A DNA stretch of 64,000 bases from a virus (IMGVR_UViG_3300031998_000029:15666-79665), one strand, 5' to 3'. Counted from the first letter of the stretch, positions 1-46,913 are shown. Program-made: numbers and translations. The notes: generated by a model not told the origin, from the sequence alone.

Positions 1-470
1 TCAAGCTCTCCAACGGACTCAGAAGTCTGGAAAATCAGAGGTATATTTATACAAGGTATGCAGACGATTTTCTGGTGTCCTCAAGATTCGATTTTGACTT
101 CAGAAAGATCGAGAAGTACATAGTCGACACGCTCCGGGGTTTCGGAGCGCCGTTCAGCATCAACTCGGAAAAGACAAGATACGGTTCTTCGTCCGGCAAA
201 AATTTCAATCTCGGACTCATGCTCAATAAGGACAACCAGATAACCGTGGGGCACAAGAAGAAAAGACAGTTACAGGCGATGCTCTCTTCGTATGTCATGG
301 ATAAAATGCACGGAAAGAGTTGGGAAAAGAACGACGTACAGGCCATGGAAGGCTATAGAAACTATTACCATATGGTGGAAGGAGAGGTGATAGACAGAAT
401 AGTACAGCATCTGAACGAGAAGTTCAGAGTAGACATCATGCAGATGATAAGAGAAGATTTGAAAGTTTGA
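1..470 (+). CDS. Reverse transcriptase, C-terminal ~155 aa (5' end outside window); group II intron-like / retroelement RT
   Basis: Frame starting nt 3 is open to 470 and reads ...KLSNGLRSLENQRYIYTRYADDFLVSSRFDFDF... (YADD box at nt 60-71), then INSEKT (motif 6), FNLGLML (motif 7, LG) and QAMEGYRNYY resembling the GWxNYY thumb/X-domain motif of group II intron maturases; the ORF-track entry 75..470 is the same frame. Confidence 0.7.
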   Translation, partial: KLSNGLRSLENQRYIYTRYADDFLVSSRFDFDFRKIEKYIVDTLRGFGAPFSINSEKTRYGSSSGKNFNLGLMLNKDNQITVGHKKKRQLQAMLSSYVMDKMHGKSWEKNDVQAMEGYRNYYHMVEGEVIDRIVQHLNEKFRVDIMQMIREDLKV

Positions 471-560
471 CAGATGCACCAATGATGATATTCCTTTTGG
501 AGTATGCTCTTCGCTGTCAGCAAGAGTAACGTAACGGCGGGGAAAAGCCGGATACTGCAG
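471..560 (+). ncRNA. Structured element copy A (shares 5' segment and CTCTY-C-GC-TGWCA-GC-RAGAG hairpin with copies at 1027 and 12291), directly 3' of RT stop
   Basis: cagatgcaccaatgatgat...gctcttcgctgtcagcaagagtaacgtaacgg aligns with copies B/C; hairpin stem shows compensatory change (ctctt/aagag vs ctctc/gagag). Confidence 0.35.
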
Positions 561-1026
561 CAGCAGCATCGCCAGGAACATGTAGACTCTAGCCGGAAAT
601 CCTCAACCCCATCCCGGGAATACCCAAGATTAATACAAGATACCCGGATCCAGCTACCGAATCTCCACCATATCCTGAAAAGAAATAGAGCGACACCCGT
701 CTACCAGGCTCGAACCAGCTCTGCCGAGCGACTCGGCGCCTGGCCTTCCGCCCGCCTCACCAGTTAGACATCACCAAGTTCGATTGAATGCAATGTCAGA
801 CAGAGAAAGGAAGCGACCTTTGATGTATACCAGGAAAACCAGAGACAGATGGGACATACTTACAAACTGGGGTTATGGCTGGGAATGCGAATACAGCGCA
901 TATTCACCCAAAGAAGCCAGACAGACTCTCAGGGACTACAGAGAAAACTCGTGCGGAAGATTTGCCGTTCGCATGGAAAAACATCGCGAGAGAATATTTG
1001 AATAAGTAACGAGAAATTTGATATTA

Positions 1027-1330
1027 ACCTACGATGCAGATTGATTGTCGCAAAACATACATAGCAATCGCTCTCCGCTGACAGCGAGAGTAACGAGATA
1101 ATACGGATTCGCCTTTACTTTCAGATCAGGCAGGCAGGAGCAGGATCAAAGAAAGATCCTGCCCGCCTGCCGATCAGGAAAGTAAGGGCTCTCTCCCGGC
1201 ATAAGCTTTTTATAACGTCGGATTAAGACGACGTTATAAAGCTTTTATGGATCGTAGGACAACACAGATCGAGTAGTGAGTATAAAGCCGTATCGAGTAT
1301 GCTGTGGCGTACAACCCTCGCATAGCGTCC
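1027..1330 (+). ncRNA. Structured ncRNA-like element copy B (ornate, multi-hairpin)
   Basis: acctacgatgcagattgattgt...caatcgctctccgctgacagcgagagtaacgagataatacggattcgcc, then an extended ~25 bp hairpin (gatcaggcaggcagg...cccgcctgccgatc) and a perfect 16 bp hairpin (aagctttttataacgtcg/cgacgttataaagctt), then conserved ttatggatcgtaggacaa; no ORF; homologous to 12291-12530. Confidence 0.45.
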
Positions 1331-1375
1331 GTACAACGCTCCGGGGTCGCAGCAGGAATTAGAGGTCTAGTGTAG

Positions 1376-1436
1376 CGGAAAAGCACGCCCCCGCAGACGG
1401 GGGATGGGTTAGGTTCGACTCCTGACGGTCTCGACC
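1376..1436 (+). ncRNA. tRNA-like 3' module lacking anticodon arm (D-arm-like, 6 bp variable-type hairpin cccccg/cggggg, T-arm ttagg-ttcgact-cctga, ...ACCA end)
   Basis: ggttcgactcc T-loop consensus and 3' gacca; no complementary 5' acceptor strand or 7-nt anticodon loop found. Confidence 0.3.
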
Positions 1437-1614
1437 AAAACGAAAATTCCTTAAAATTACAAAGATATGAAAAAGCAGCGTAAAACTAATGAAAGTATGG
1501 TCAGCAGAGTAGACCGCCGGTGAGATATGTACAGTCAAATCCGGCCGCTGTTCCCGTGGGTGAAAGTCCCACGGCTCGATTTCAATTAATACATAGGTAT
1601 GAGGTATTTGCAAA

Positions 1615-1827
1615 ATGAAAGCAACTGTTTCGCGTGTTTATGTCTTAATAAGACATCTCCCATTCGTAGGGGGACAGATTGAGGGAATCTTTTTGTCAAA
1701 CGACAGCGCTCTGAAGTGGCTGGAAGAACAAGTACAAAACGGCGAATGGTGCGCGTTTGATGCAAAGTATAATACCGAAATTAAAGAATGGGATGTCAAA
1801 GGAGGAAAATATGTTACGTTACGTTGA
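1615..1827 (+). CDS. hypothetical protein
   Basis: ORF track; first gene after long non-coding region; weak RBS. Confidence 0.4.
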   Translation: MKATVSRVYVLIRHLPFVGGQIEGIFLSNDSALKWLEEQVQNGEWCAFDAKYNTEIKEWDVKGGKYVTLR

Positions 1828-2299
1828 TATTCCAGATGGTAGATACAGCGGGTTGTGGTTCGACTCTGACCCCTGGAGGCTTACCGCAGAAGATCAGTGT
1901 TGGGACGCTGAAACCCTCCGTCAATTAAAAGAAGAGTATAATGTTGTATTTTGTACTGATGGAGACGGGGTCACCCCTATAATGGTTTCAAAAGAATGGG
2001 GAATAGTTCTTGGCTGTGAAGACGATGGTACTATCTATTTCAATCAAAAATACGGGCAGCCCGACATGTGTTTTTCTTTGGTGTGGGTAAAGCACTTCAT
2101 GGCAGATCTTAAGGAGGCATATAAGATGGGCGTTAAGGAACTGTGGGAAGAATTTGGAGATGTCCCCATGGATCCGGAAACGGAGTGCATAGAAAGCGAT
2201 TGGCGCAGCTTTCCAAAAGGCACGCACAGAGAAGATATTTGGCACTGGTTTGAAGAAGAGTTTGGGATCGAAGTACATACTCTGATGTACGGAGAATAA
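1811..2299 (+). CDS. hypothetical protein
   Basis: ORF 1757..2299 trimmed to ATG 1811 preceded by GGAGG at 1801-1805. Confidence 0.6.
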   Translation: MLRYVDIPDGRYSGLWFDSDPWRLTAEDQCWDAETLRQLKEEYNVVFCTDGDGVTPIMVSKEWGIVLGCEDDGTIYFNQKYGQPDMCFSLVWVKHFMADLKEAYKMGVKELWEEFGDVPMDPETECIESDWRSFPKGTHREDIWHWFEEEFGIEVHTLMYGE

Positions 2300-2327
2300 A
2301 ACACAACTGTATAGAGAGGAATTGTAT

Positions 2328-2500
2328 ATGACGGTCTATCTCATTTTTGACACAGTCCCCATCCATCGCGAGGTTGTCGGGGTTTTTTCTACCGAGCAGA
2401 AAGCGAGAGAGTGGCTTGACAGAGCATACGATGATTTTGGATGGACATACGGAGAAGTCAGCTCAGCAATTATCGAACCGTGGGTTGTTGACCTCGAATA
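2328..2500 (+). CDS. hypothetical small protein (57 aa)
   Basis: ATG after agagagga RBS; MTVYLIFDTVPIHREVVGVF...; below ORF-track size cutoff. Confidence 0.45.
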
Positions 2501-2536
2501 ATACTTAGAATAAAACATAACTTTGATGAGAAACTT

Positions 2537-2788
2537 ATGAATTATAAGATTGGAGACAAGATATTTTTTATAGGAATCCGTTGCAATATCAGCAAGCTAA
2601 TGGGAGATGTAGGCGACTGTAGTTGGTTTTGCCCAAAACAAGTTCCAGATTGTGAACGATACGTCTGTGAATGCGAGATTGGCAATCAGGCGGCTGCCGA
2701 CAGCTTTAATAATGACGATGACTCTTGTTATGCTTCACGAGCCGAAGCAGAAAGCGCGTTACGGAAGTTGCAACAGAAACATATTTGA
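2537..2788 (+). CDS. Cys-rich small protein (putative Zn-binding)
   Basis: CSWFCPKQVPDCERYVCECE cysteine cluster. Confidence 0.55.
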   Translation: MNYKIGDKIFFIGIRCNISKLMGDVGDCSWFCPKQVPDCERYVCECEIGNQAAADSFNNDDDSCYASRAEAESALRKLQQKHI

Positions 2789-2825
2789 TAATGCCCTATG
2801 ATTTAATAAGGAGATATGACAATGT

Positions 2826-3710
2826 ATGAGTGAGAATCCTTTTGAAGCAATAGCGAACATTTACAATTACGCCGTTGAAGAAGCGGATAAGTTGGGGTAT
2901 GCGAATACATTCAAGAAATGTGCAGAGCTTTTCTTTAAGGCTGTCAATGAAGAGAGCGCCTTGAGAGACAATCCGGTTCACTTTTCGGATGTCGAATATC
3001 TCGACGGATACTTCATTTTTGGCTCCGGCACGAACTCTGTGGTTCACTTCCATATAGATGAATGCCCGGGCTGGAAATTCGGCATTTGGTGGAATGTTCC
3101 AGAAGAAGGAAAATCATCTGTTTCCGGAGATTTCTTCGCTCAGTTTGAGGAAGCTATAGACAAGTTCAAGCCATCTGCATCCGAGATCAACGGGAAAATC
3201 AACATTGATCCTGATGGAAATTTCTCGGCTTCTGTATGGGGAGTATCAAGAGAAATCCGATTTATCCGAGATGAACCGTACCTTTCATTCTGCCGATCTT
3301 ATTGCTTCTGGGATTACAACACCGAGCATCATACACGAGAAGAAGCAGAGCAGGAATACAGAGAATATAGAGAGCGCAAAGATAATGAGTATAATTACAC
3401 AGCTCTGGTAGACGGTAAAATCCTGATGTTCGTGAGGGAAAAAGTTCTTCCAATATTTAAAAACGCAAGGATTGTAGACAGAGGTGATGGTTGGTCTCCA
3501 AGATATGATGTTGTTGCGCCTTTGAAGGACAATACAGACATTGTGAACAAGCGCGGCTGCTACAATTGGTTTGCTGAGGATGACGAAGAAGGTCAAAAGA
3601 TTATGGATGAATTCAATGTATTAATAAAAGAGGGTGAGGATTACGGAGATAAGTACGGGTTCTATTATTCTGCGCCCATCCACAGCAACATTGGGTTCTA
3701 TGAAGAATAA
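2826..3710 (+). CDS. hypothetical protein
   Basis: 294 aa ORF; RBS aaggagat upstream. Confidence 0.65.
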   Translation: MSENPFEAIANIYNYAVEEADKLGYANTFKKCAELFFKAVNEESALRDNPVHFSDVEYLDGYFIFGSGTNSVVHFHIDECPGWKFGIWWNVPEEGKSSVSGDFFAQFEEAIDKFKPSASEINGKINIDPDGNFSASVWGVSREIRFIRDEPYLSFCRSYCFWDYNTEHHTREEAEQEYREYRERKDNEYNYTALVDGKILMFVREKVLPIFKNARIVDRGDGWSPRYDVVAPLKDNTDIVNKRGCYNWFAEDDEEGQKIMDEFNVLIKEGEDYGDKYGFYYSAPIHSNIGFYEE

Positions 3711-4582: not shown

Positions 4583-5011
4583 GTGTTGTATAAAATAGTT
4601 CCTAAAAAACCTATTGCGTCAATCATCGACGCAGAGTCGCCGGACAGCGCAATAGATGCATTCGCTTGGAGTATGGACGACGACATGAATATTTATTTTG
4701 AAGCTGTTCCCGCAACCGACGCGGAAACAAAGGAGTTTGAAGAATCTAAGCAATCTTTTGCTACTCATCTCCGAATCTGCTCCGTCTGCGGGAGGCCGGT
4801 ATATGCCGGCATGACAAACGCGGATGGAAGTTTTTATGTCCACGAGGAATGCTTTGAGACATACATGAACGAGACTTATGGTGCGTGGTTTGAAGTCGAT
4901 GATGACGGCTGCGGCGGCTATTATATGGGTTGCGAACGTGAAGAACCTATCGGCCCCTATGCCACCGGCATCTTCTATACAGAGTGGGAAGACGAGGAGT
5001 TTGAAGAATAA
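4583..5011 (+). CDS. hypothetical protein with CxxC and acidic C-terminus
   Basis: GTG start after gaggtgaaaga; CSVCGRP...HEECFE. Confidence 0.6.
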   Translation: MLYKIVPKKPIASIIDAESPDSAIDAFAWSMDDDMNIYFEAVPATDAETKEFEESKQSFATHLRICSVCGRPVYAGMTNADGSFYVHEECFETYMNETYGAWFEVDDDGCGGYYMGCEREEPIGPYATGIFYTEWEDEEFEE

Positions 5012-5094
5012 TGTATATAAGAAAAACGCGAGACCGCTGAAAGGATGAAATTTGAGAAGAATAAAATCAACTTTTCATAACGGATGGTGTAGAT

Positions 5095-5481
5095 ATGGAG
5101 AATAAGATTGTAATACGACTTCCAAACGGTTATCACCTTGTTGCGGAACAGAATTCAGATCCCAACTATCTCAACGAAATATTTATCGGGATTTTGGACG
5201 AATATGGAGTGTGGCATCAAGACCTCGCCGTCGTAAGATGTGCATACGAAATAGACGATGAATTCCGCGTTCATTGGAAAGACGAGGAATTTGACGTTCT
5301 GGTGTATTCCGACGAGAACAACGAAGATTTCACACATGACTTCACAGTCGGACTGTATCATAAAGAAGATGGCTTAAATATTTGTGGAGAACATGGTTGT
5401 GACGGTTGCTTGTATCAGCATCACAACGATATTGATATATGCAAACAGGAAGCCGCAAGAAAGAATAAAATGACTTTTTGA
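5095..5481 (+). CDS. hypothetical protein
   Basis: ORF track, 128 aa. Confidence 0.6.
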
Positions 5482-8146: not shown

Positions 8147-8386
8147 ATGAGCGATAAACATATCAACAAGAAACTCTTTTTAAAAGACCTGAAATGGGTT
8201 CTCCGTCCATGTGTGGGGAGCAACTACGCAGATTGTATTGCGTCTGACGAAGATTTCTTTAACGATGTGATTCGGGATGTGGAAGAGACGAGCGCATGGG
8301 AAGACGAAGGCTGTTATAACGAAGATGATGTCCGTCTCGCGGTAGGCCGGGTTTTAATAGAACGATTAAACATAGCTTACTATTAA
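8147..8386 (+). CDS. hypothetical small protein
   Basis: ORF track. Confidence 0.45.
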   Translation: MSDKHINKKLFLKDLKWVLRPCVGSNYADCIASDEDFFNDVIRDVEETSAWEDEGCYNEDDVRLAVGRVLIERLNIAYY

Positions 8387-8396
8387 GGAGCTGCAT

Positions 8397-8789
8397 ATGA
8401 ACACAAGAATAGATTATTTGTACCGTGACGCAAGCAACTATAAAGCCTATAATTCCGTAGTGTTATCCGGGAAGATGTCCGCAGAAGACGCAGAGCGCAT
8501 TAGTAAGTGCTTGTGCGACGGTACATACTTTATACCGAGAGATGTCGGACTTCCCGAAATTCGAGTCTGCGGCTATCGTACCGATGACGACCACTGCTGG
8601 TTCGAGTGGGAAATAGGCGTCGACAAATATACCGGAGAAGCATTCGGATTTGAGCTTACCGAAGATAAGCCCACGGTGGGCATAAGAGTTTCTGAGCTTG
8701 TAAAAAACTTTGAAAGTGTAAAGAAATGGAACGAGACAAGCTGGATGGAAGACTACGAATATAAGTCATACGACCAGTTTTGTGAGTAA
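8397..8789 (+). CDS. hypothetical protein
   Basis: ORF track; RBS aaggag. Confidence 0.55.
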   Translation: MNTRIDYLYRDASNYKAYNSVVLSGKMSAEDAERISKCLCDGTYFIPRDVGLPEIRVCGYRTDDDHCWFEWEIGVDKYTGEAFGFELTEDKPTVGIRVSELVKNFESVKKWNETSWMEDYEYKSYDQFCE

Positions 8790-8853
8790 GCAATACAATA
8801 AAAGCGACGCAATATTTAAATGGGTGACGTGATAACAAAAAAGGATAAAGGCA

Positions 8854-9090
8854 ATGATTGAGATTGGAATGGTTTATACATTTGACACTCATGGCGGAGA
8901 TTCTACATGGAATGATAGAAGCGGAGAAAATGCGTTGTTGTTCGTCCGCTTACGGAAGATGAAGCAGATCTTTTTGATGTTGGTCAGATGTATCGCATCA
9001 GGTTTAGTGATGGCGTTGAAACGGATGCTTTTGAGGATGAACTTTCGTAAATTAGACAAACTTTCATTGGATGTTTTAAAGGAGTTATGA
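8854..9090 (+). CDS. hypothetical protein
   Basis: ORF track; composition atypical, could be non-coding. Confidence 0.3.
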   Translation: MIEIGMVYTFDTHGGDSTWNDRSGENALLFVRLRKMKQIFLMLVRCIASGLVMALKRMLLRMNFRKLDKLSLDVLKEL

Positions 9091-9091
9091 A

Positions 9092-9268
9092 ATGTATTCA
9101 GAAACAGATATAATTAAAAGTTTGAAAATTGCAAGCAGAGAAATCACGGATGACTGTTCTTGGAGCGGAGCGATTATATTGGCTGAAATAATTCTTGATA
9201 AGTCAGAAGATTCTATTATGGAAATGATCGATGATTTAAAAATAAAATTTGCAGAGGATGATAAATAA
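9092..9268 (+). CDS. hypothetical small protein (58 aa)
   Basis: ATG 9092 after aaaggag; below ORF-track cutoff. Confidence 0.4.
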   Translation: MYSETDIIKSLKIASREITDDCSWSGAIILAEIILDKSEDSIMEMIDDLKIKFAEDDK

Positions 9269-9744
9269 TGCCTACACCCGACTTTGTAAAAGCAAAACTC
9301 GACAAAGTGTACACGGACTCCGTACTGAGAAAAGAAATGTCGCCGAGCTCATGGGCTGGCGACGTCTCGTATATGCCGGTTGTCAGAATGAAAATGACAT
9401 GCGGAGGCGGGATGGGAGGATCTCAATGGTACGAATATATACAACGAGAATCGTTTTTCTCGGCCTGTTCTTTTGTTATAACAGCGGGCGGGAACTCATT
9501 TTCCCACCATCCGACGCTTGTTTCTGCGGCAGGAGACCACGGCATCATTCACGTCAAAACATGGGATAACAAAGATATCATTCTGAATACGGCTTATATG
9601 GTCAAAGCGGATTATTTTACGATAGCAACCGCAAATCTGTACAGCCAAAATCATAATTTTCCAATCGGAGTCTATGCTTTCAGCTATCTGATTCCGGACG
9701 GGCATACATTGACACTGTCTAACGAATGCAGACCGGTGATATAA
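9268..9744 (+). CDS. hypothetical protein
   Basis: ORF track, 158 aa, start overlaps previous stop (ATAATG). Confidence 0.55.
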   Translation: MPTPDFVKAKLDKVYTDSVLRKEMSPSSWAGDVSYMPVVRMKMTCGGGMGGSQWYEYIQRESFFSACSFVITAGGNSFSHHPTLVSAAGDHGIIHVKTWDNKDIILNTAYMVKADYFTIATANLYSQNHNFPIGVYAFSYLIPDGHTLTLSNECRPVI

Positions 9745-9941
9745 AACACATGAAAGAAATCAGGCTTAAATGGGACGATCTTAGCCCCACGGAAAAAGAA
9801 ATTGCAGTTAATAACTACAGAAGTATAAGAACGGTTGAAGAAGAAGCGGAGTGCAGCGAAGAGCGTGCGAGAAACGATACCCCATTTTGCAGGGGTTTTT
9901 ATAAGAACATGACGACCGGAGAGATTACGGTCGATATCTGA
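9726..9941 (+). CDS. hypothetical small protein
   Basis: ORF track; alternative start ATG 9750. Confidence 0.4.
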   Translation: MQTGDIKHMKEIRLKWDDLSPTEKEIAVNNYRSIRTVEEEAECSEERARNDTPFCRGFYKNMTTGEITVDI

Positions 9942-9972
9942 CTTAAGATCGATTATAAAGGAGAGGATATAT

Positions 9973-10224
9973 GTGTATGCAGTAGTGTTTACATACAGTT
10001 TTGACCACGACGTCGCTGTTTACCTTTACAAGACACAGGACGAAGCCGTACAGCATCTGGAAGATTATCTAAAAGAGAGATTCGCGCATGAAGCTACAGA
10101 CCAAAAGACCCACTACGGCATATCATTTGATATAAGCGAAGACGGTCTTTACGGTACATATAAGCAGCATTTTTTAGATCACATCGAAACTACCACGGTT
10201 AGGGTCGGGACGGTATACGATTAA
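9973..10224 (+). CDS. hypothetical protein
   Basis: GTG start after aaggagagga. Confidence 0.5.
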   Translation: MYAVVFTYSFDHDVAVYLYKTQDEAVQHLEDYLKERFAHEATDQKTHYGISFDISEDGLYGTYKQHFLDHIETTTVRVGTVYD

Positions 10225-10253
10225 CTCATGGAAACACAAAAGGAGTAATTAAT

Positions 10254-10823
10254 ATGGAGTTTATATTAAATTTATTGTTTGCAGCTTTGTGTGGAGCTAT
10301 GGTGGGGTTAGTATTCGGCACAGTTTTCTTTGTATATAGTCATCGACCAGCAAAAGATGAATTCGAAAATAACGACAGTAAATCACAAAGCGGCATTTTA
10401 GTAGATATCATGAGAGACGGAAAAAGAAGATTCGTTCCGTTTTACGATATCAAGTCCGGAGATTTCATAGCCTATCTGGGAGTGTTCGCGGGTGATGACG
10501 CGCATCAGAGCGGAGATGCATCATATGACGGATGGCTATTTTATGACAGTAACGGACTCAGTGTGTTTCCCGAAGATCTTGACGGAGACGTCCGCGACGA
10601 CAGAGAAGATAAATGGTTTGGGATAGTCCGGTGGTGTAACGAAGATATAGCATGTAAGATGGTATGCATGGGAATCACCCCTACAAAGAAAAGCATATTA
10701 GAGGTCAGGGATTTTTGCGAAAAGAATAAATCTTTCAATGATACAATGTGCAAAGCCGGTTGGGATATGATCGAAACGGCGATACGGGAATGCGATAAGG
10801 AGCGGAAATATGGAAGATTCTAA
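10254..10823 (+). CDS. membrane protein (N-terminal TM helix)
   Basis: MEFILNLLFAALCGAMVGLVFGTVFFVY; RBS aaggag. Confidence 0.6.
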   Translation: MEFILNLLFAALCGAMVGLVFGTVFFVYSHRPAKDEFENNDSKSQSGILVDIMRDGKRRFVPFYDIKSGDFIAYLGVFAGDDAHQSGDASYDGWLFYDSNGLSVFPEDLDGDVRDDREDKWFGIVRWCNEDIACKMVCMGITPTKKSILEVRDFCEKNKSFNDTMCKAGWDMIETAIRECDKERKYGRF

Positions 10824-10977
10824 TAATAATGTTGAAATAAACGTGTTTGATGTAGAGGAAATACATAATAACTGTACCGTTCAGATTCTCAAGAACAGCG
10901 TGACCGGAGAAACAAGCGTCGGATGGTGGGAAAATGAGTTCCCGCCCGCTGTTATAACAAAAGAACAGGCCGACTAA
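10809..10977 (+). CDS. hypothetical small protein (56 aa)
   Basis: ATG overlapping previous stop; fills gap. Confidence 0.35.
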
Positions 10978-10986
10978 GGAGGATAT

Positions 10987-11538
10987 ATGGGTTACTATGT
11001 GAACGCAGACGGGTTTATAACATTAAAGGAAGGCAAGTACGATAAGGAAATGCTCCTGGCTGTAAGAAATAAACTTAATAAAGCATTTGATGAATATGAC
11101 TGTGGCTCTAACGACGATATCCCTTACTATTCTTTCGGACTGTGCGGAAATTATTATGCAGACGAAGTGTGTAAAACGCTTGATGATGTAGCCGACATGG
11201 TCGGCAATTATATAACTGACGGGGAAGTACAGTTTTCCGGCGAAGATAGGGAATATTGGCGATTCGTATTTAAGAACGGTATGTGGATAGAGGAGCCGGG
11301 ACATGTCGTATATAACGAGGACGACCTTGCGACTCAATCCGACGTGGTTATAGAAGTATGCCCGCATTGCAGCAACGAGGTTGAGATGCGCTGGAATACA
11401 AAAGTTTCCGGGCTCAGAGCCTTTTGCCCCTTCTGCGGAAATAGGCTCATGCTGTGCAGCGAGTGCGACGGGATGATTGTCGGATGCGACTACGACTCCG
11501 ACTCCGATACCTGTAAATTTAGCAGACCCACATACTAA
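10987..11538 (+). CDS. hypothetical protein with C-terminal Zn-ribbon cluster
   Basis: RBS aaggagg; CPHCSNE...CPFCGNRLMLCSECDG. Confidence 0.6.
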   Translation: MGYYVNADGFITLKEGKYDKEMLLAVRNKLNKAFDEYDCGSNDDIPYYSFGLCGNYYADEVCKTLDDVADMVGNYITDGEVQFSGEDREYWRFVFKNGMWIEEPGHVVYNEDDLATQSDVVIEVCPHCSNEVEMRWNTKVSGLRAFCPFCGNRLMLCSECDGMIVGCDYDSDSDTCKFSRPTY

Positions 11539-11679
11539 ATAAATTAACCCGTCCATTGGGTATTGACAACAACGACGGGGTTACAATGTTTCTTTATAAA
11601 AGTCAAGTTCCGAAGCTATTAAAGGGATTCTTTTATACCGATATATAAAAAACACGAAAAAACAGAATGCCGCAGACCC

Positions 11680-11712
11680 ATTGGCGCTCAATGGGTCTGG
11701 GCTATTTTGATG
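11680..11712 (+). terminator. putative hairpin terminator / regulatory stem (cagacccattg-gcgct-caatgggtctg + ggctatttt)
   Basis: 11 bp perfect stem followed by T-rich tract; part of a motif repeated at 20444. Confidence 0.35.
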
Positions 11713-11795
11713 AGATGCTATAGTGTATGGTATTTCAGATAACGCAAAAAAACAGTTGTCTGTTATTTTATTCCAAAAAGAAAGGTGGTGCGACG

Positions 11796-11990
11796 ATGAT
11801 AAAGTCGGAACAGTTTCTCCTCATCATGAACGATTCGCTCGGTGCTGCTGCGGTCGGCGGAGCATTGGAGAACCTGATGCCAAACGCCGGTTTTATTGAC
11901 GACGTAAAGAGGCATATGGACGCCCGCAGAAAGTCTGCGTGCCGCAGAAACAGAGCATTTGCCGGACAAAAAGCACCGGCTCAGGCTTAA
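11796..11990 (+). CDS. hypothetical small protein
   Basis: ATG 11796 after aaaggtggtg; listed ORF 11727..11990 extended. Confidence 0.45.
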   Translation: MIKSEQFLLIMNDSLGAAAVGGALENLMPNAGFIDDVKRHMDARRKSACRRNRAFAGQKAPAQA

Positions 11991-12092
11991 ACACAACAAA
12001 CTGGTTTTCCTTTTAAGAAGCGCCCCGAAACCCATTGGGGCGCAGGGGATCGGGAGATTGTTTACAACCGCAAAGGTTGTAAACGGTTATAT

Positions 12093-12168
12093 CTGAACGT
12101 GGTGCAGTGGGTAGCACTCCTGATTTGGGATCAGGAAGTCGCAGGTTCAAATCCTGCCGTTCAGACCA
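12093..12168 (+). tRNA. tRNA-Pro (anticodon TGG)
   Basis: Cloverleaf by eye: acceptor ctgaacg/cgttcag, D gtgc/gcac, AC stem cctga/tcagg loop tttggga, T gcagg-ttcaaat-cctgc, encoded CCA. Confidence 0.85.
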
Positions 12169-12290
12169 CGGGCGAAGCGGTTACGCACTCTGCCCGGTCA
12201 TGGTCTCCTTTCTCTCCATAGCTCCTCCCGCCGCCGGACTTCCCGCGTGCGGGAGGGGCGCACTTATTTTCTATAAAGATAAAATTTATT

Positions 12291-12530
12291 ACCTACGATG
12301 CAGATTGATTGTTCAGATCACAACAATCGCTCTCCGCTGTCAGCGAGAGCAACAAGATGACACGGATTCGCCCTTGCCCTTCACCTCCGCGTCACTGCCG
12401 GGACGCAGGACGACCCGGCAGGGCGCGAGAGGAGAAGGCTCATACCGGCATAATCAGCGAAAACTCCATTATGGATCGTGGGACAATAAAAGTTCATACT
12501 CGGGCGGCTCGCAAGTCCCCGGGTTTTCAT
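12291..12530 (+). ncRNA. Structured ncRNA-like element copy C (homolog of 1027-1330)
   Basis: acctacgatgcagattgattgt...caatcgctctccgctgtcagcgagagcaacaagatgacacggattcgcc; long imperfect hairpin at the position of copy B's long hairpin but with different sequence (structural covariation); conserved ccggcataa[hairpin]ttatggatcgtgggacaa. Confidence 0.45.
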
Positions 12531-12605
12531 GCTGGCGTGGCTCAAAGGCAGAGCAACGCACTTGTAATGCGTAGGTTGTGGGTTCGATTCCCTCCGCCAG
12601 CTCCA
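12531..12605 (+). tRNA. tRNA-Thr (anticodon TGT)
   Basis: acceptor gctggcg/cgccagc, D gctc/gagc, AC acgca-cttgtaa-tgcgt, T-loop ttcgatt (one T-stem mismatch), CCA encoded. Confidence 0.75.
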
Positions 12606-12694
12606 TTGGCGCGGCGTAAAGGTTGGTTGCCGAGGCGAATATTTATAGCCAAAACTGTGGGAGACTGTTATTCCTGCCAAGTCGCGCCTTATTT

Positions 12695-12770
12695 GCCGAC
12701 ATAGCTCAGCAGGCAGAGCAGGCGCTTCGTAAGCGCAAGATTGCAGGTTCGATTCCTGCTGTCGGCTCCA
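12695..12770 (+). tRNA. tRNA-Thr (anticodon CGT)
   Basis: acceptor gccgaca/tgtcggc, D gctc/gagc, AC ggcgc-ttcgtaa-gcgca, T gcagg-ttcgatt-cctgc, CCA encoded. Confidence 0.8.
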
Positions 12771-12817
12771 ATTTTCAAACACACAGAAACACAAATAAAT
12801 CAGAAAGGAGAATTACA

Positions 12818-13009
12818 ATGGCTTACAGAATTGTACAAAAAGAATTTAACCCAAACACAGGCAAAAACCTCGTCGAAATCGTACTGGACAGCGATTCAGA
12901 TCTTTCGGAAGTCGGTACTGATTATTCCCCGGGCAGCATCGCGGTAGTGGCAGACTCCGGAGCTCCGTCATATATGCTGAATGCTTCAGAAGAATGGAAG
13001 GAGTTATAA
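12818..13009 (+). CDS. hypothetical small protein
   Basis: ATG 12818 after aaaggag; listed ORF 12623..13009 runs through the tRNA. Confidence 0.55.
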   Translation: MAYRIVQKEFNPNTGKNLVEIVLDSDSDLSEVGTDYSPGSIAVVADSGAPSYMLNASEEWKEL

Positions 13010-13010
13010 A

Positions 13011-13430
13011 ATGAGCGTTTTACGAGATATAGTCCGCGCAAAAATATTCGCGTCGGGCGGCGGGGGAGGCGGAAACGCCGTGCTTTCCGGCACGTTTATA
13101 GCGACTCAAAATACCGCATCGCACATAATCGAAGAGCTGATCGGATCGACTGTAACTCATTTTTTGATAACGGCCATGCCGTCACCCAGCGCAACAATCC
13201 AGTCTTCGGCACGTGCTTTCAGCGCCGGGTTTATCAACATGGAGGATACCATGAGCTTCTCTATTGGAACGAGTTCAAGCGGAACATCGGTTGCAGCCAT
13301 TAGAATAAAAGACACCGAGGATGAAAGCTTTTCGTTAGACAAGACGACGGGAGTTTTTAAGGTTGCCACGGGAACCGCCGGACTCGGGTATATTCTTGCC
13401 GGAATAACATATAAGTGGTTTGCTTGGTGA
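13011..13430 (+). CDS. hypothetical Gly/Ser/Thr-rich protein
   Basis: ATG 13011 after ggaaggag; GGGGGG tract. Confidence 0.55.
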   Translation: MSVLRDIVRAKIFASGGGGGGNAVLSGTFIATQNTASHIIEELIGSTVTHFLITAMPSPSATIQSSARAFSAGFINMEDTMSFSIGTSSSGTSVAAIRIKDTEDESFSLDKTTGVFKVATGTAGLGYILAGITYKWFAW

Positions 13431-14171: not shown

Positions 14172-15275
14172 ATGGAAAGGAATGTCACAGTGCGAAAATT
14201 AGCAAGTATAAAGACGATCTCGGACATACTTCCGATTGAGGGCAAAGACAGGATCGTCCTGGCGCTCGTAGACGGATGGAGCGTCATTGTTAAGAAGGAC
14301 GAGTTTCAGGTCGGTGACAAGTGCGTTTATGTAGAAATAGATTCCGTAATGCCGGAGAAAGAAGAGTTCGAGTTTCTCAGGAAGGTAAACTTCAGAATTA
14401 AAACCATGAAGATGTCCGGGGTTTTATCGCAGGGTATCTGCTTCCCGTTAAGCATTCTTCCGAAGAAAGAGGACGGAGAATATGAGACAGAGGAAGATGT
14501 CACCGAAATACTCGGTATAAAGCAATATGAAAAGACGATGGATACAGAACCGCAGACAGCTCCGTGCAAGAAGGTTTCAAACAAGTATCCGCACTGGTTA
14601 ATGAGAATGGCATGGTTCAGAAAGCTGGTTCTTCCGAAGAAAAAGGCACGCGGCTTTCCGTCTTTCGTGTCCAAGACCGATGAAAGCAGGATCCAGAACA
14701 TGCCGTTCATCTTAAAAGATAAAAGAAAGTGGATTGCAACAGAAAAGATAGACGGACAAAGCGGTACTTTCTGCCTGGTCAGACATAAGTCCCGTCTGCC
14801 TTTTATAAAGGATAAGTTTGAGTACATAGTATGCTCCCGTAATTACAGAACCGACGACAAAAGCACGTCTTACTGGAAGGTATCTGACAGATATAACATC
14901 AGGGACGTTCTGGAAAAGCTGATCGGCGATAACGACTGGGTTGTGATTCAGGGCGAATGCATCGCTCCCAACGTCCAGGGCAACAAATACAAGGTCAAAG
15001 AGGCAGATCTGTATGTGTTCAATCTTATCTACCCGGACGGCAGAGTGGGATCACTTACCGCCAAGTATGCCTGTGAAGCTTTCGGTCTGAAATTTGTTCC
15101 GATAATTGAAACGGGATATATACTGCCGGATACCGTTAATGAAGTCCTTGAATATGCTCACGGACAGAGCATGATCGGAGACACCATAAGAGAGGGAATC
15201 GTGTTCAGAAGCATGGACGGCAGGCTGAGTTTCAAGGCGGTCGATCCGATTTTCCTTATGAAGTATGACGAATAA
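14172..15275 (+). CDS. ATP-dependent RNA ligase-like protein (Rnl5/DraRnl-like: N-terminal OB/tRNA-binding-like domain + nucleotidyltransferase domain)
   Basis: KxDG lysine-adenylylation motif in WIATEKIDGQSGTF; N-terminus VRKLASIKTISDILPIEGKDRIVLALVDGWSVIVKKDEFQVGDKCVYVEIDSVMP resembles OB/tRNA-binding domains. Confidence 0.6.
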   Translation: MERNVTVRKLASIKTISDILPIEGKDRIVLALVDGWSVIVKKDEFQVGDKCVYVEIDSVMPEKEEFEFLRKVNFRIKTMKMSGVLSQGICFPLSILPKKEDGEYETEEDVTEILGIKQYEKTMDTEPQTAPCKKVSNKYPHWLMRMAWFRKLVLPKKKARGFPSFVSKTDESRIQNMPFILKDKRKWIATEKIDGQSGTFCLVRHKSRLPFIKDKFEYIVCSRNYRTDDKSTSYWKVSDRYNIRDVLEKLIGDNDWVVIQGECIAPNVQGNKYKVKEADLYVFNLIYPDGRVGSLTAKYACEAFGLKFVPIIETGYILPDTVNEVLEYAHGQSMIGDTIREGIVFRSMDGRLSFKAVDPIFLMKYDE

Positions 15276-45491: not shown

Positions 45492-46913
45492 GTGGCAAAA
45501 TCAAAAATGAGAAAACCAAAAGAGACCAAAGCTACGGAGAGGGTTGTGATAGCTAAATACATCAGAGTGTCAACAGACAAACAAAGAGAAGAGGGTTACT
45601 CTGTTGATATTCAAAAAGAAAGACTGGACAGTTATGCAAGATCTCTCTTTCCGGAATCAACATACGATGTCGAATACAGGGAATATGTTGATGACGGGTT
45701 TAGCGGCGGTTCCCTTGAAAGACCACAAATGACGCAACTCATTGAAGATGTTAAAAACGGAGTAATAACCCATGTCATTGTAATGAAACTCGACAGGTTA
45801 AGCAGATCGCAGAAAGACACGCTTTATTTGATTGAGGATATATTCCTCCCAAATAACGTGGCATTTATTTCGATGGGGGAGAGCTTTAACACAGACACTC
45901 CTTTCGGAAGAGCCGTTGTAGGAATACTATCTGTGTTCGCTCAGCTCGAACGAGAGAACATTTTTGAGCGAACACGCAGCGGAATGCAGAAGAGAGTAGA
46001 GCTCGGCTACTGGCCGGGAGGAGGCGCCATTCCCTTCGGTTACGATTACGACGCCAATCAGGGCATACTCATTCCCAACGGAAACGCCGACACAGTACGC
46101 ACTGTGTTCGAACTGTATACAAGAGGTTATTCGGCTCAGTATATAGCCAATCTTCTAGGACTTAAGTACGATAAGCTCGTAAACAATATACTGACTAGGA
46201 AAACATATACCGGTGCAATTGTCTATAATAGCATAGAGTATAAAGGAAAACATCAGCCGATTATCTCAGAAGAGTTGTATGAGAAAGTACAGGCGATGAT
46301 TCAGGACAGATCATCAAAAAGGTTTGTTTCAGCAACGACCAACCTGCTTACCGGCATGGTATACTGCGGCAGATGCGGAGCAAAGATGCGATATATCAAA
46401 TGGGGCAAGCACGGAAGGTCGAGATTGATGTGCTACTCACAGGAAAAGTCCAAACCATATCTTGTCAAAGACCCTGACTGCGAAAATGAAAAGCCTTGGG
46501 CGGACGATGTAGAAGACACCGTAATTAAACTACTTTTCGAACGAGCGCATGTCAACGAATGTAATAATACGAATGAAGAACAGGCCGACCCGGTTAAGAT
46601 GCTTCAGTCCCAAAGAGTTTCCCTTGTCAACAAACTAAAAAGACTATATATTATCTACGCAGAAGGCGACGATGCTATTACACAAGTCATAAACGAGACA
46701 AAGGAAGAAGTAGCGAAAATAGAAAAGAGAATCGAAGGAGAGATTGCTAAGAGAGCGACCACTATTATCGAGCAAGACATTCAAGAGAAACTGTCCTCTC
46801 TCGAAGAATCGTGGCAATATTTAGATGTATCAGAAAAACAAAATATAGTCCGATCTCTTATAAACAAAGTCACGATAACCGGACATCGTATTCACATTGA
46901 TTTCAAAATTTAA
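45492..46913 (+). CDS. large serine recombinase (phage integrase)
   Basis: N-terminal resolvase domain YIRVSTDKQ (catalytic Ser), DDGFSGG, KLDRLSRS; large C-terminal Cys-containing domain; 473 aa. Confidence 0.9.
   Translation: MAKSKMRKPKETKATERVVIAKYIRVSTDKQREEGYSVDIQKERLDSYARSLFPESTYDVEYREYVDDGFSGGSLERPQMTQLIEDVKNGVITHVIVMKLDRLSRSQKDTLYLIEDIFLPNNVAFISMGESFNTDTPFGRAVVGILSVFAQLERENIFERTRSGMQKRVELGYWPGGGAIPFGYDYDANQGILIPNGNADTVRTVFELYTRGYSAQYIANLLGLKYDKLVNNILTRKTYTGAIVYNSIEYKGKHQPIISEELYEKVQAMIQDRSSKRFVSATTNLLTGMVYCGRCGAKMRYIKWGKHGRSRLMCYSQEKSKPYLVKDPDCENEKPWADDVEDTVIKLLFERAHVNECNNTNEEQADPVKMLQSQRVSLVNKLKRLYIIYAEGDDAITQVINETKEEVAKIEKRIEGEIAKRATTIIEQDIQEKLSSLEESWQYLDVSEKQNIVRSLINKVTITGHRIHIDFKI

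Follow-up and report, generated by a model that had tools for sequence, protein, structure and literature searches.

Retrons are known from bacteria as defenses against phages, each consisting of one reverse transcriptase (RT), one non-coding RNA (ncRNA) and one toxin. Retron Ec73 of the P4-like prophage phiR73 is a case of a retron on a phage-type element; it has a single msr-msd with its effector gene between msd and RT, and it is defense cargo of a satellite prophage. Here we analyzed 64,000 nucleotides (nt) of viral DNA (IMGVR_UViG_3300031998_000029:15666-79665; hereafter the window, with positions counted from its first base), which open inside an RT gene. We conclude that this locus is probably a phage-borne retron-type module, in which one RT gene is accompanied by several msr-msd-like ncRNAs on the same strand.

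The closest described systems are retrons of types I-A and II-A (Ec78/Eco7, Ec83, St85/Sen2 and Ec73), which are the best matches of the phage RT by hidden Markov model (HMM), by sequence and by fold. They share with the phage module the a1/a2 stem, the opposed G, the msr-type hairpins and a copy of the RNA just upstream of the RT. In contrast, these retrons have a PtuAB-like or NDT-like effector, whereas none was recognized in the phage module, and the phage module has three or more ncRNAs per RT, some of them downstream of it or distant. The phage templates are also A/C-rich and for the most part unstructured. The phage RT has degenerate VTG and NAxxH motifs and an extra N-terminus of ~85 amino acids (aa) that is strongly conserved in its family, and the carrier of the module is a ~100-kb phage of gut Clostridia.

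Orphan retrons (Ec107-like clade 2, Mestre et al. 2020; Toro 2026) likewise consist of RT and ncRNA without an accessory module (PMC7736814; 10.64898/2026.05.14.725207); the passages of both papers considered here mention neither multiple ncRNAs nor phage carriage. Effector-less retrons are enriched in gut Bacillota, according to the 2026 survey (10.64898/2026.05.14.725207). Since the PADLOC model RT_Ec107-like reaches 94.5 bits and RT_II-A 147 bits, we do not assign the phage RT to the Ec107-like clade. The RT gp206 of MarsHill, from the Staphylococcus jumbo phages, is also a retron-type RT of lytic phages, with no linked effector and with a long adjacent non-coding stretch suspected of holding an ncRNA (10.1101/2020.12.14.422802). 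However, it has 23% identity to the RT of the window phage, and its ncRNA stayed undefined, with no report of a multi-copy architecture (10.1101/2020.12.14.422802). Our literature searches gave no report of several templates per RT, the nearest case being this Staphylococcus jumbo-phage RT. As far as these searches reach, the form described here, a phage-borne, multi-template, effector-less retron-type module with hypervariable, largely unstructured templates, is new.

Classification of the reverse transcriptase

The window begins with the 3' third of the RT gene, which encodes the last 155 aa with RT motifs 5-7 and the thumb and ends with a stop codon at 468-470. The translation runs KLSNGLRSLENQRYIYTRYADDFLVSS...INSEKTRYGSS...NLGLMLNKDNQITVGHKKKRQLQ...EGYRNYYHMVEG...LKV, and YIYTRYADDFLVSS, INSEKTRYG, NLGLMLN and GYRNYY are read in this order along the frame. 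An earlier note, made from the sequence of this DNA alone, had placed YADD, EKT and LG motifs here, and translation confirmed them. The upstream flank, which that note had proposed to obtain, was found in two public contigs identical to the window, one over 3009 nt (L165) and the other over 9489 nt with zero mismatches (L291). Both supply the 5' part of the gene, which starts 685 nt before base 1 and encodes a full-length RT of 384 aa with all motifs. The RT gene is intact and is cut by the window edge alone.

We found retron types on top when the RT was classified by HMM, another check that the earlier note had suggested. The top PADLOC matches were all retron RT types (RT_II-A, 2.4e-22 with the window fragment as query and 2e-43 with the full-length relative, L001). 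The best NCBIfam match was retron_St85_RT, with 77.2 bits (1.3e-21) for the window fragment and 161.3 bits for the full-length relative, and the runners-up for the latter were Ec67 (86 bits), a TIR anti-phage RT (81 bits) and group II (80 bits). Pfam gave only a weak RVT_1 match for the window fragment. Sequence search of the PDB matched the RTs of retrons Ec83, Ec78 and Ec67. With an AlphaFold model of one member of the RT family (pLDDT 79.9), Foldseek ranks 1-13 were all retron RTs (E 4.6e-15 to 2.4e-11), followed below by a group II RT (6e-10) and, at rank 23, by the RT of a diversity-generating retroelement (DGR; 3e-9). The models of the UG and defense-associated RT (DRT) families were weak (Drt2 25.6 bits, Drt3a 18.4 bits), and DRT9 structures ranked below both retron and group II RTs. 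Because the best matches are retron RTs, yet the scores fall under curated subfamily cut-offs, we place this RT, by its sequence and modeled fold, as a divergent lineage inside the retron group.

A compact group II intron and a DGR were two options of the earlier note, and either could have its other parts upstream of the window. RT motifs 5-7 and a thumb-like C-terminus are common to all these RT classes, and there is a weak group II HMM match (1.9e-7). However, the retron models and folds score much better: the group II model reaches 30.6 bits against 77.2 for the retron model on the window fragment and 79.8 against 161.3 on the full-length relative, so that the retron model is twice as high as TIGR04416 (group II maturase), whose cut-off is 300 bits. 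GYRNYY, which had been taken as a marker of group II maturases, aligns at the same G..Y/F position with the thumb of the retron Ec83 RT. Rfam scans of 1-1700, at the gathering threshold and by E-value, gave neither a known RNA family nor an intron ribozyme domain, the only match being a chance-level one to group-II-D1D4-4 at 1554-1620 (13.5 bits, E = 3.9), and the upstream flank of the same phage has an a2-like repeat and A/C-rich RNA with no intron domains. For a DGR, as far as the window and the fetched flanks reach, there was no template- or variable-region-type repeat above 28 nt in 1-2000, and template mismatches involve A, C and T about equally, without the adenine bias of DGR-like mutagenesis. 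An intron or a DGR is extremely improbable.

In some relatives of this RT, 40-70 aa are inserted between RT motifs 4 and 5 (L001, residues ~245-300; P0002; P0010); the RT of the window is without this insertion. The insertion of L001 has a weak CBM_5_12 match, below cut-off (4e-5), and that of P0010 is Cys-rich and zinc-ribbon-like.

Predicted template RNAs of the phage and its relatives

The phage carries at least four predicted retron-type template RNAs, two of them in the DNA directly behind the RT (Table 1). They are ordered as an upstream copy, RNA a on the RT stop codon, RNA b 540 nt further and RNA c 11.8 kb downstream of the RT. Of the upstream copy, the 3' end alone was seen: on the identical contig L291, AG followed by ATTACAGTC (its a2) lies 20 nt before the ATG of the RT gene.

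Table 1. Features of the module and its surroundings in the window (CM R1, covariance model R1; MFE, minimum free energy)
Feature	Position	Strand	Parts	Evidence
RT gene, 3' third	3-470	+		Translation
ncRNA a (retron-type)	468-798	+	Interrupted a1 468-483; hairpin 1 488-505; hairpin 2 506-527, then GUAAC; A/C-rich template ~535-781; opposed G 782; a2 783-798	CM R1 49 bits, E = 3.4e-8; MFE fold; alignment with 24 same-position elements
60-aa gene, between a and b	823-1005	+	AAAGGAAG 9 nt upstream of ATG	38 homologue clusters, 65-100% identity
ncRNA b (retron-type, variant class)	1028-1258	+	a1 CCTACGAT 1028-1035; G1036; hairpin 2 1070-1091, then GUAAC; opposed G1250; a2 ATCGTAGG 1251-1258	CM R1 26.1 bits; a2 search; fold
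Degenerate tRNA-like element	1362-1433	+		ARAGORN tRNA-Leu(cag), 72 nt; Rfam tRNA 18.3 bits (threshold 29)
tRNA island	12093-12770		Pro-tgg, Thr-tgt, Thr-cgt; c embedded
ncRNA c (retron-type)	12292-12482	+	a1 12292-12299; G12300; opposed G12474; a2 ATCGTGGG 12475-12482	CM R1 34.8 bits, E = 4.1e-5; a2 search; fold z = -6.4; alignment with b
CM matches in the window	460-551; 1009-1112; 12273-12374	+ (all)		49, 26 and 35 bits, respectively
RNA-ligase gene, 1.4 kb beyond tRNA island	14172-15275			phrog_968, 5e-74
Serine-integrase-like gene	45492-46913	+		phrog_95, 3e-112

The MFE fold of RNA a closes a1/a2 and both hairpins (z = -2.4 for the whole element), and its template is weakly structured. 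RNA b folds at -105.9 kcal/mol (z = -10.8 relative to shuffles) and reproduces the full retron shape, with template hairpins at 1111-1189 (~35 bp) and ~1203-1244 (~16 bp). The two RNAs share a 26-nt repeat (506-531 and 1070-1095, 88% identical), which is a bulged hairpin followed by GUAAC and recurs around the RT of relatives. RNA c lies between the tRNA-Pro and the two tRNA-Thr genes and is paralogous to b: the two nearly agree over 90 nt at the 5' end and over the 3' sequence CCGGCAUAA...UUAUGGAUCGURGGACAA, and the central hairpin has been swapped for an unrelated one. The a1/a2 pairing is 8 bp in each of b and c, with one G-U in c where b pairs A-U.

As judged by alignment and pairing, these RNAs match the a1 - G - msr - msd - G - a2 architecture, which Mestre et al. 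2020 describe for retrons (PMC7736814). In an alignment of 42 copies, the conserved parts are ...YRMAAUG, hairpin 2 and GUAAC, with a variable hairpin 1, and 87% of cells are paired vs 42-54% with the partners slid. Changes on both sides of a pair occur in 109 cells vs 39 expected, and none of 500 shuffles was as high. RNAalifold, given 25 full elements, recovered the a1/a2 stem as well as the two hairpins; of the 23 pairs, 19 have compensatory changes, pairs of the a1/a2 stem included. Hence two covarying hairpins stand at the 5' side of each RNA, which is the msr feature.

We searched for a2 independently of the covariance model, using the 14 nt that precede the conserved G. In 84 of 105 distinct elements, an uninterrupted complement of a1 of at least 8 bp, counted from the G-adjacent base, lies 196-353 nt downstream. 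In the controls, shuffled a1 had a mean best score of 5.0, and upstream DNA reached 8 in 0 of 103. The G directly after a1 is nearly invariant in the family alignment, and 92 of 94 elements have a G directly 5' of a2, vs a background of 23%. In the window the opposed G pairs are G484 or G487 with G782, G1036 with G1250, and G12300 with G12474. The median element length in relatives is ~300 nt.

The covariance model gave 173 matches in 83 IMG/VR loci and 73 in loci of metagenome-assembled genomes (MAGs) or metagenomes, all on the RT strand, and zero matches in the loci of distant RTs. The commonest layout, present in 39 of the 83 loci, has a single copy upstream of the RT and a pair downstream; there are further scattered copies. 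In relatives, 7-30 nt separate the end of the upstream copy from the RT start, the first downstream copy begins on the RT stop codon, as RNA a does here, and the next follows ~280-300 nt later.

Alternatively, these could be structured phage RNAs of a family independent of the RT, such as small RNAs or elements for processing the tRNA island, which lies near the RT only through conserved gene order. Copies far from the RT, such as c among the tRNAs and others 2-3 kb downstream in relatives, fit this explanation, and since all RT-bearing loci come from one phage group and share ThiF, synteny could give the co-occurrence. In addition, a degenerate hairpin-2 pattern, which matched 3 stretches only, included one (L286) with no RT within its 9-kb stretch. 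However, the architecture is specifically that of retrons, with a1/a2 abutting two opposed G; one copy always ends just before the RT start and another begins on its stop codon; and matches are confined to the RT strand and absent from the loci of distant RTs. We consider an RT-independent family very unlikely. A 15-mer of RNA b had 113 matches in IMG/VR on both strands; this pattern is short for the collection, and its matches were taken as chance without inspection of the loci.

The relatives of the RT are encoded in at least 435 IMG/VR stretches, and all 120 of the protein clusters listed score above 510 bits. All close relatives found were on metagenomic contigs of phage size or in gut MAGs, mostly of Clostridia, with none in isolate genomes; beyond them, RT identity falls abruptly to 31% or less. 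Among GenBank phages, tblastn of the RT gave a single unannotated fecal phage record (39% identity), and megablast of 1-3000 gave no match.

Within the module, the template parts evolve fastest in the sequences compared, which were four pairs of close phages (L018/L026, L057/L059, L021/L024 and L066/L069). The a1 and msr core differs at 1.6-3.7% of sites and RT third codon positions at 7.7-25.7%, and template parts have 17-19.5% substitutions plus 7-10% indel columns, which exceeds the divergence of RT third codon positions in two of the four pairs. The transition/transversion ratio is 1.3 in template parts vs 5.3 in the RT, a difference that may in part reflect alignment uncertainty in diverged stretches. 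These hot spots stand out between phages that are otherwise 94-97% identical; between L018 and L026, identity drops to 0.69-0.81 over three template stretches only (~3198-3392, 4692-4888 and 4987-5266).

The template composition is A/C-rich, with C at 29% vs a background of 21% and with G and T at 20% vs 25%. A long msd hairpin was seen in b (template z = -4.5) and in c (whole-element fold), and not in a or in most relatives. These properties bear on a DRT-like system, whose cDNA would take a long, concatenated or double-stranded form and might serve as coding sequence or promoter, as in DRT2. The lack of an msd hairpin in most templates and their skewed composition would be explained by such a system, and RNA a has an 87-codon open frame at 504-767. 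However, the RT groups with retrons and not with the UG/DRT families, a1/a2 with the opposed G is the priming geometry of retrons, and the many 1- and 2-nt indels in the template part among close relatives argue against a conserved reading frame; a coding template found no support on the same ground. A DRT-like system is thus highly improbable in our estimate.

Two other uses of the templates were tried and rejected. BLAST of the a, b and c templates against the whole window and all fetched loci gave no target-like match, hence a homology donor is without support in the examined DNA. As for a restriction-site decoy, GATC is only 1.46-fold enriched in the templates of the family, which is similar to other G+C-rich palindromes, and it is not avoided in the window. 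RNA b holds five GATC sites in 231 nt, two of them double-stranded within the long hairpin.

Of the options in the earlier note, that of a retron- or DRT-like RT-ncRNA module held up on the retron side, with an RT that best matches retrons and downstream RNAs that have a1/a2, opposed G and covarying hairpins. The long hairpins and repeated elements that it saw behind the RT are real and belong to a and b. Its description of this DNA as structured and poor in open reading frames (ORFs) stands for the structure and fails in one place for the ORFs: the region holds two ncRNAs, a 60-aa gene and a tRNA-like element, and the claim that 471-1614 has no convincing ORF and no start led by a ribosome-binding site is contradicted by the ORF at 823-1005, which has both such a site and homologues (Table 1). 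Several RNAs per RT, a small gene between them and a copy 11.8 kb away had not been foreseen. The extent that the note gives to this region differs between its coordinates (to 1440) and its text (to 1614).

Genes and elements around the module

The window is from a phage. Its genes include those for tail proteins, an RNA ligase, a DnaB-type helicase, a DNA polymerase, an anaerobic ribonucleotide reductase and a serine-integrase-like protein. Because of the serine-integrase-like gene, a lysogenic stage is possible, and the phage may be temperate, although no close relatives of its RT turned up in isolate genomes. The sequencing runs SRR9008936 and SRR9008937 contain this phage.

The 60-aa protein encoded between a and b has no Pfam family, and an identical protein is encoded on a contig of 114,999 bp. 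We rejected it as a retron accessory gene: in other phages its homologues are surrounded by small early genes and lack an RT within 4 kb, hence it appears to be an unrelated small gene inserted between two RNAs. The tRNA-like element behind b has a 6-nt anticodon loop and an acceptor stem that is mismatched by eye, and ACCA follows it. A scan of 1-2000 for terminators and promoters found sites no more common than in shuffles.

tRNA genes follow the ncRNA arrays in relatives, too (L057, L002 and L007). The proximity of tRNAs and ncRNAs may reflect co-transcription and processing, or a counter-defense island. In the relative L003, nucleotidyltransferase, isochorismatase, phosphoribosyltransferase and NAMPT-like families are encoded at 8383-13143, a few kb downstream of the RT-ncRNA array, and this gene set resembles NAD-salvage counter-defense genes.

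Upstream of the RT, 76 of 81 loci have a ThiF-family E1-like gene, including loci whose RT identity is as low as 36-40% (region 5705-7857 in L001), a linkage that may be due to synteny alone. The E1 domain of the ThiF-family protein locally matches the anti-phage model '6A-MBL cap2_3' (4.5e-18). A 300-aa protein with an HSH...S..D motif accompanies the ThiF gene in 73 loci; it has no Pfam or NCBIfam match, and a 'JAB' identity for it was dropped for lack of support in either. L001 also has a 111-aa zinc-ribbon ORF in the ThiF region.

This neighborhood bears on whether the module is a defense or superinfection-exclusion retron that serves the phage or lysogen, with an unlinked or unrecognized effector, perhaps the ThiF-family protein and its neighbors, and with cDNAs as sensors or antitoxins. 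The retrons characterized in the literature all act in defense, the ThiF gene is present at most loci, and the serine-integrase-like gene permits a lysogenic stage. On the other hand, the ThiF conservation is equally explained by synteny, no toxin-type domain was found by PADLOC or Pfam in the four upstream proteins scanned in L001, and several quickly diverging templates per RT are not known from defense retrons. Also against it, the close relatives are confined to metagenomic phage contigs and MAGs. We regard a defense retron as possible but doubtful.

Candidate products and role

If the phage-borne module works by the retron mechanism, the RT would bind the conserved 5' hairpins and start synthesis at the 2'-OH of the G that follows a1; copying of the template would run from the base adjoining the opposed G toward the 5' hairpins. 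One branched RNA-DNA product would be made per RNA, and therefore several different single-stranded DNAs (ssDNAs) would come from one enzyme. Most of these cDNAs would be G/T-rich and unstructured, and those of b and c would be long hairpins.

Several points weigh against a retron-type module with such products. For the RT, the score is under the curated family cut-off (161 vs 235 bits for retron_St85_RT), the VTG motif of retrons is aligned with NLG, and NAxxH retains its H alone (NAKIH of Ec83 is aligned with AVKRH). For the RNAs, a has an interrupted a1/a2 and two candidate priming residues, G484 and the G487 that the covariance model aligns; b is a weak match to the model (26 bits); and the 15 loci with the most divergent RTs had no model match, owing either to the reach of the model or to true absence. 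The template parts, unlike the classical long msd hairpin, are mostly no more structured than shuffles (median z = -0.8, with 19% below -2). Downstream of the RT we found RNAs and small genes and no recognizable effector. The synthesis of cDNA or multicopy single-stranded DNA (msDNA) by the module is what we infer from this analysis, and because no effector was identified, the functional part is drawn from the gene neighborhood.

For the module as a retron-type system, we favor a role in phage-host or phage-phage conflict with the fast-changing cDNAs as payload, because no effector adjoins the RT, because the early region holds tRNAs, an RNA ligase and, in L003, families of the NAD-salvage type, and because the templates change fast. 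We tentatively propose that the cDNAs act as counter-defense decoys or sponges. That they serve as a defense or exclusion sensor, with an effector that is unlinked or unrecognized, is a more doubtful possibility, and the remaining probability goes to other roles. The assignment of function is the weakest step of the explanation.

What the module offers is the retron priming architecture in a large, abundant group of uncultured gut phages, where each RT has three to five templates, no toxin is recognizable and the template regions change faster than any sequence beside them. Testable rules for recognition by the RT follow from the constant 5' part of the RNA and from template cassettes that can be replaced, as in b vs c. 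Should the cDNAs be made, this would be natural multiplexed retron DNA production, of practical interest for retron editors, and possibly a new class of phage counter-defense or competition device. It is conceivable, and for now speculative, that a widespread lineage of gut phages runs one retron RT as a multi-product ssDNA factory, with interchangeable, diversifying templates directed against the immunity of the host or of rival phages. If so, the hypervariability of the templates would reflect an arms race, or error-prone cDNA feeding back into its own gene, and the retron would be working for the virus instead of against it.

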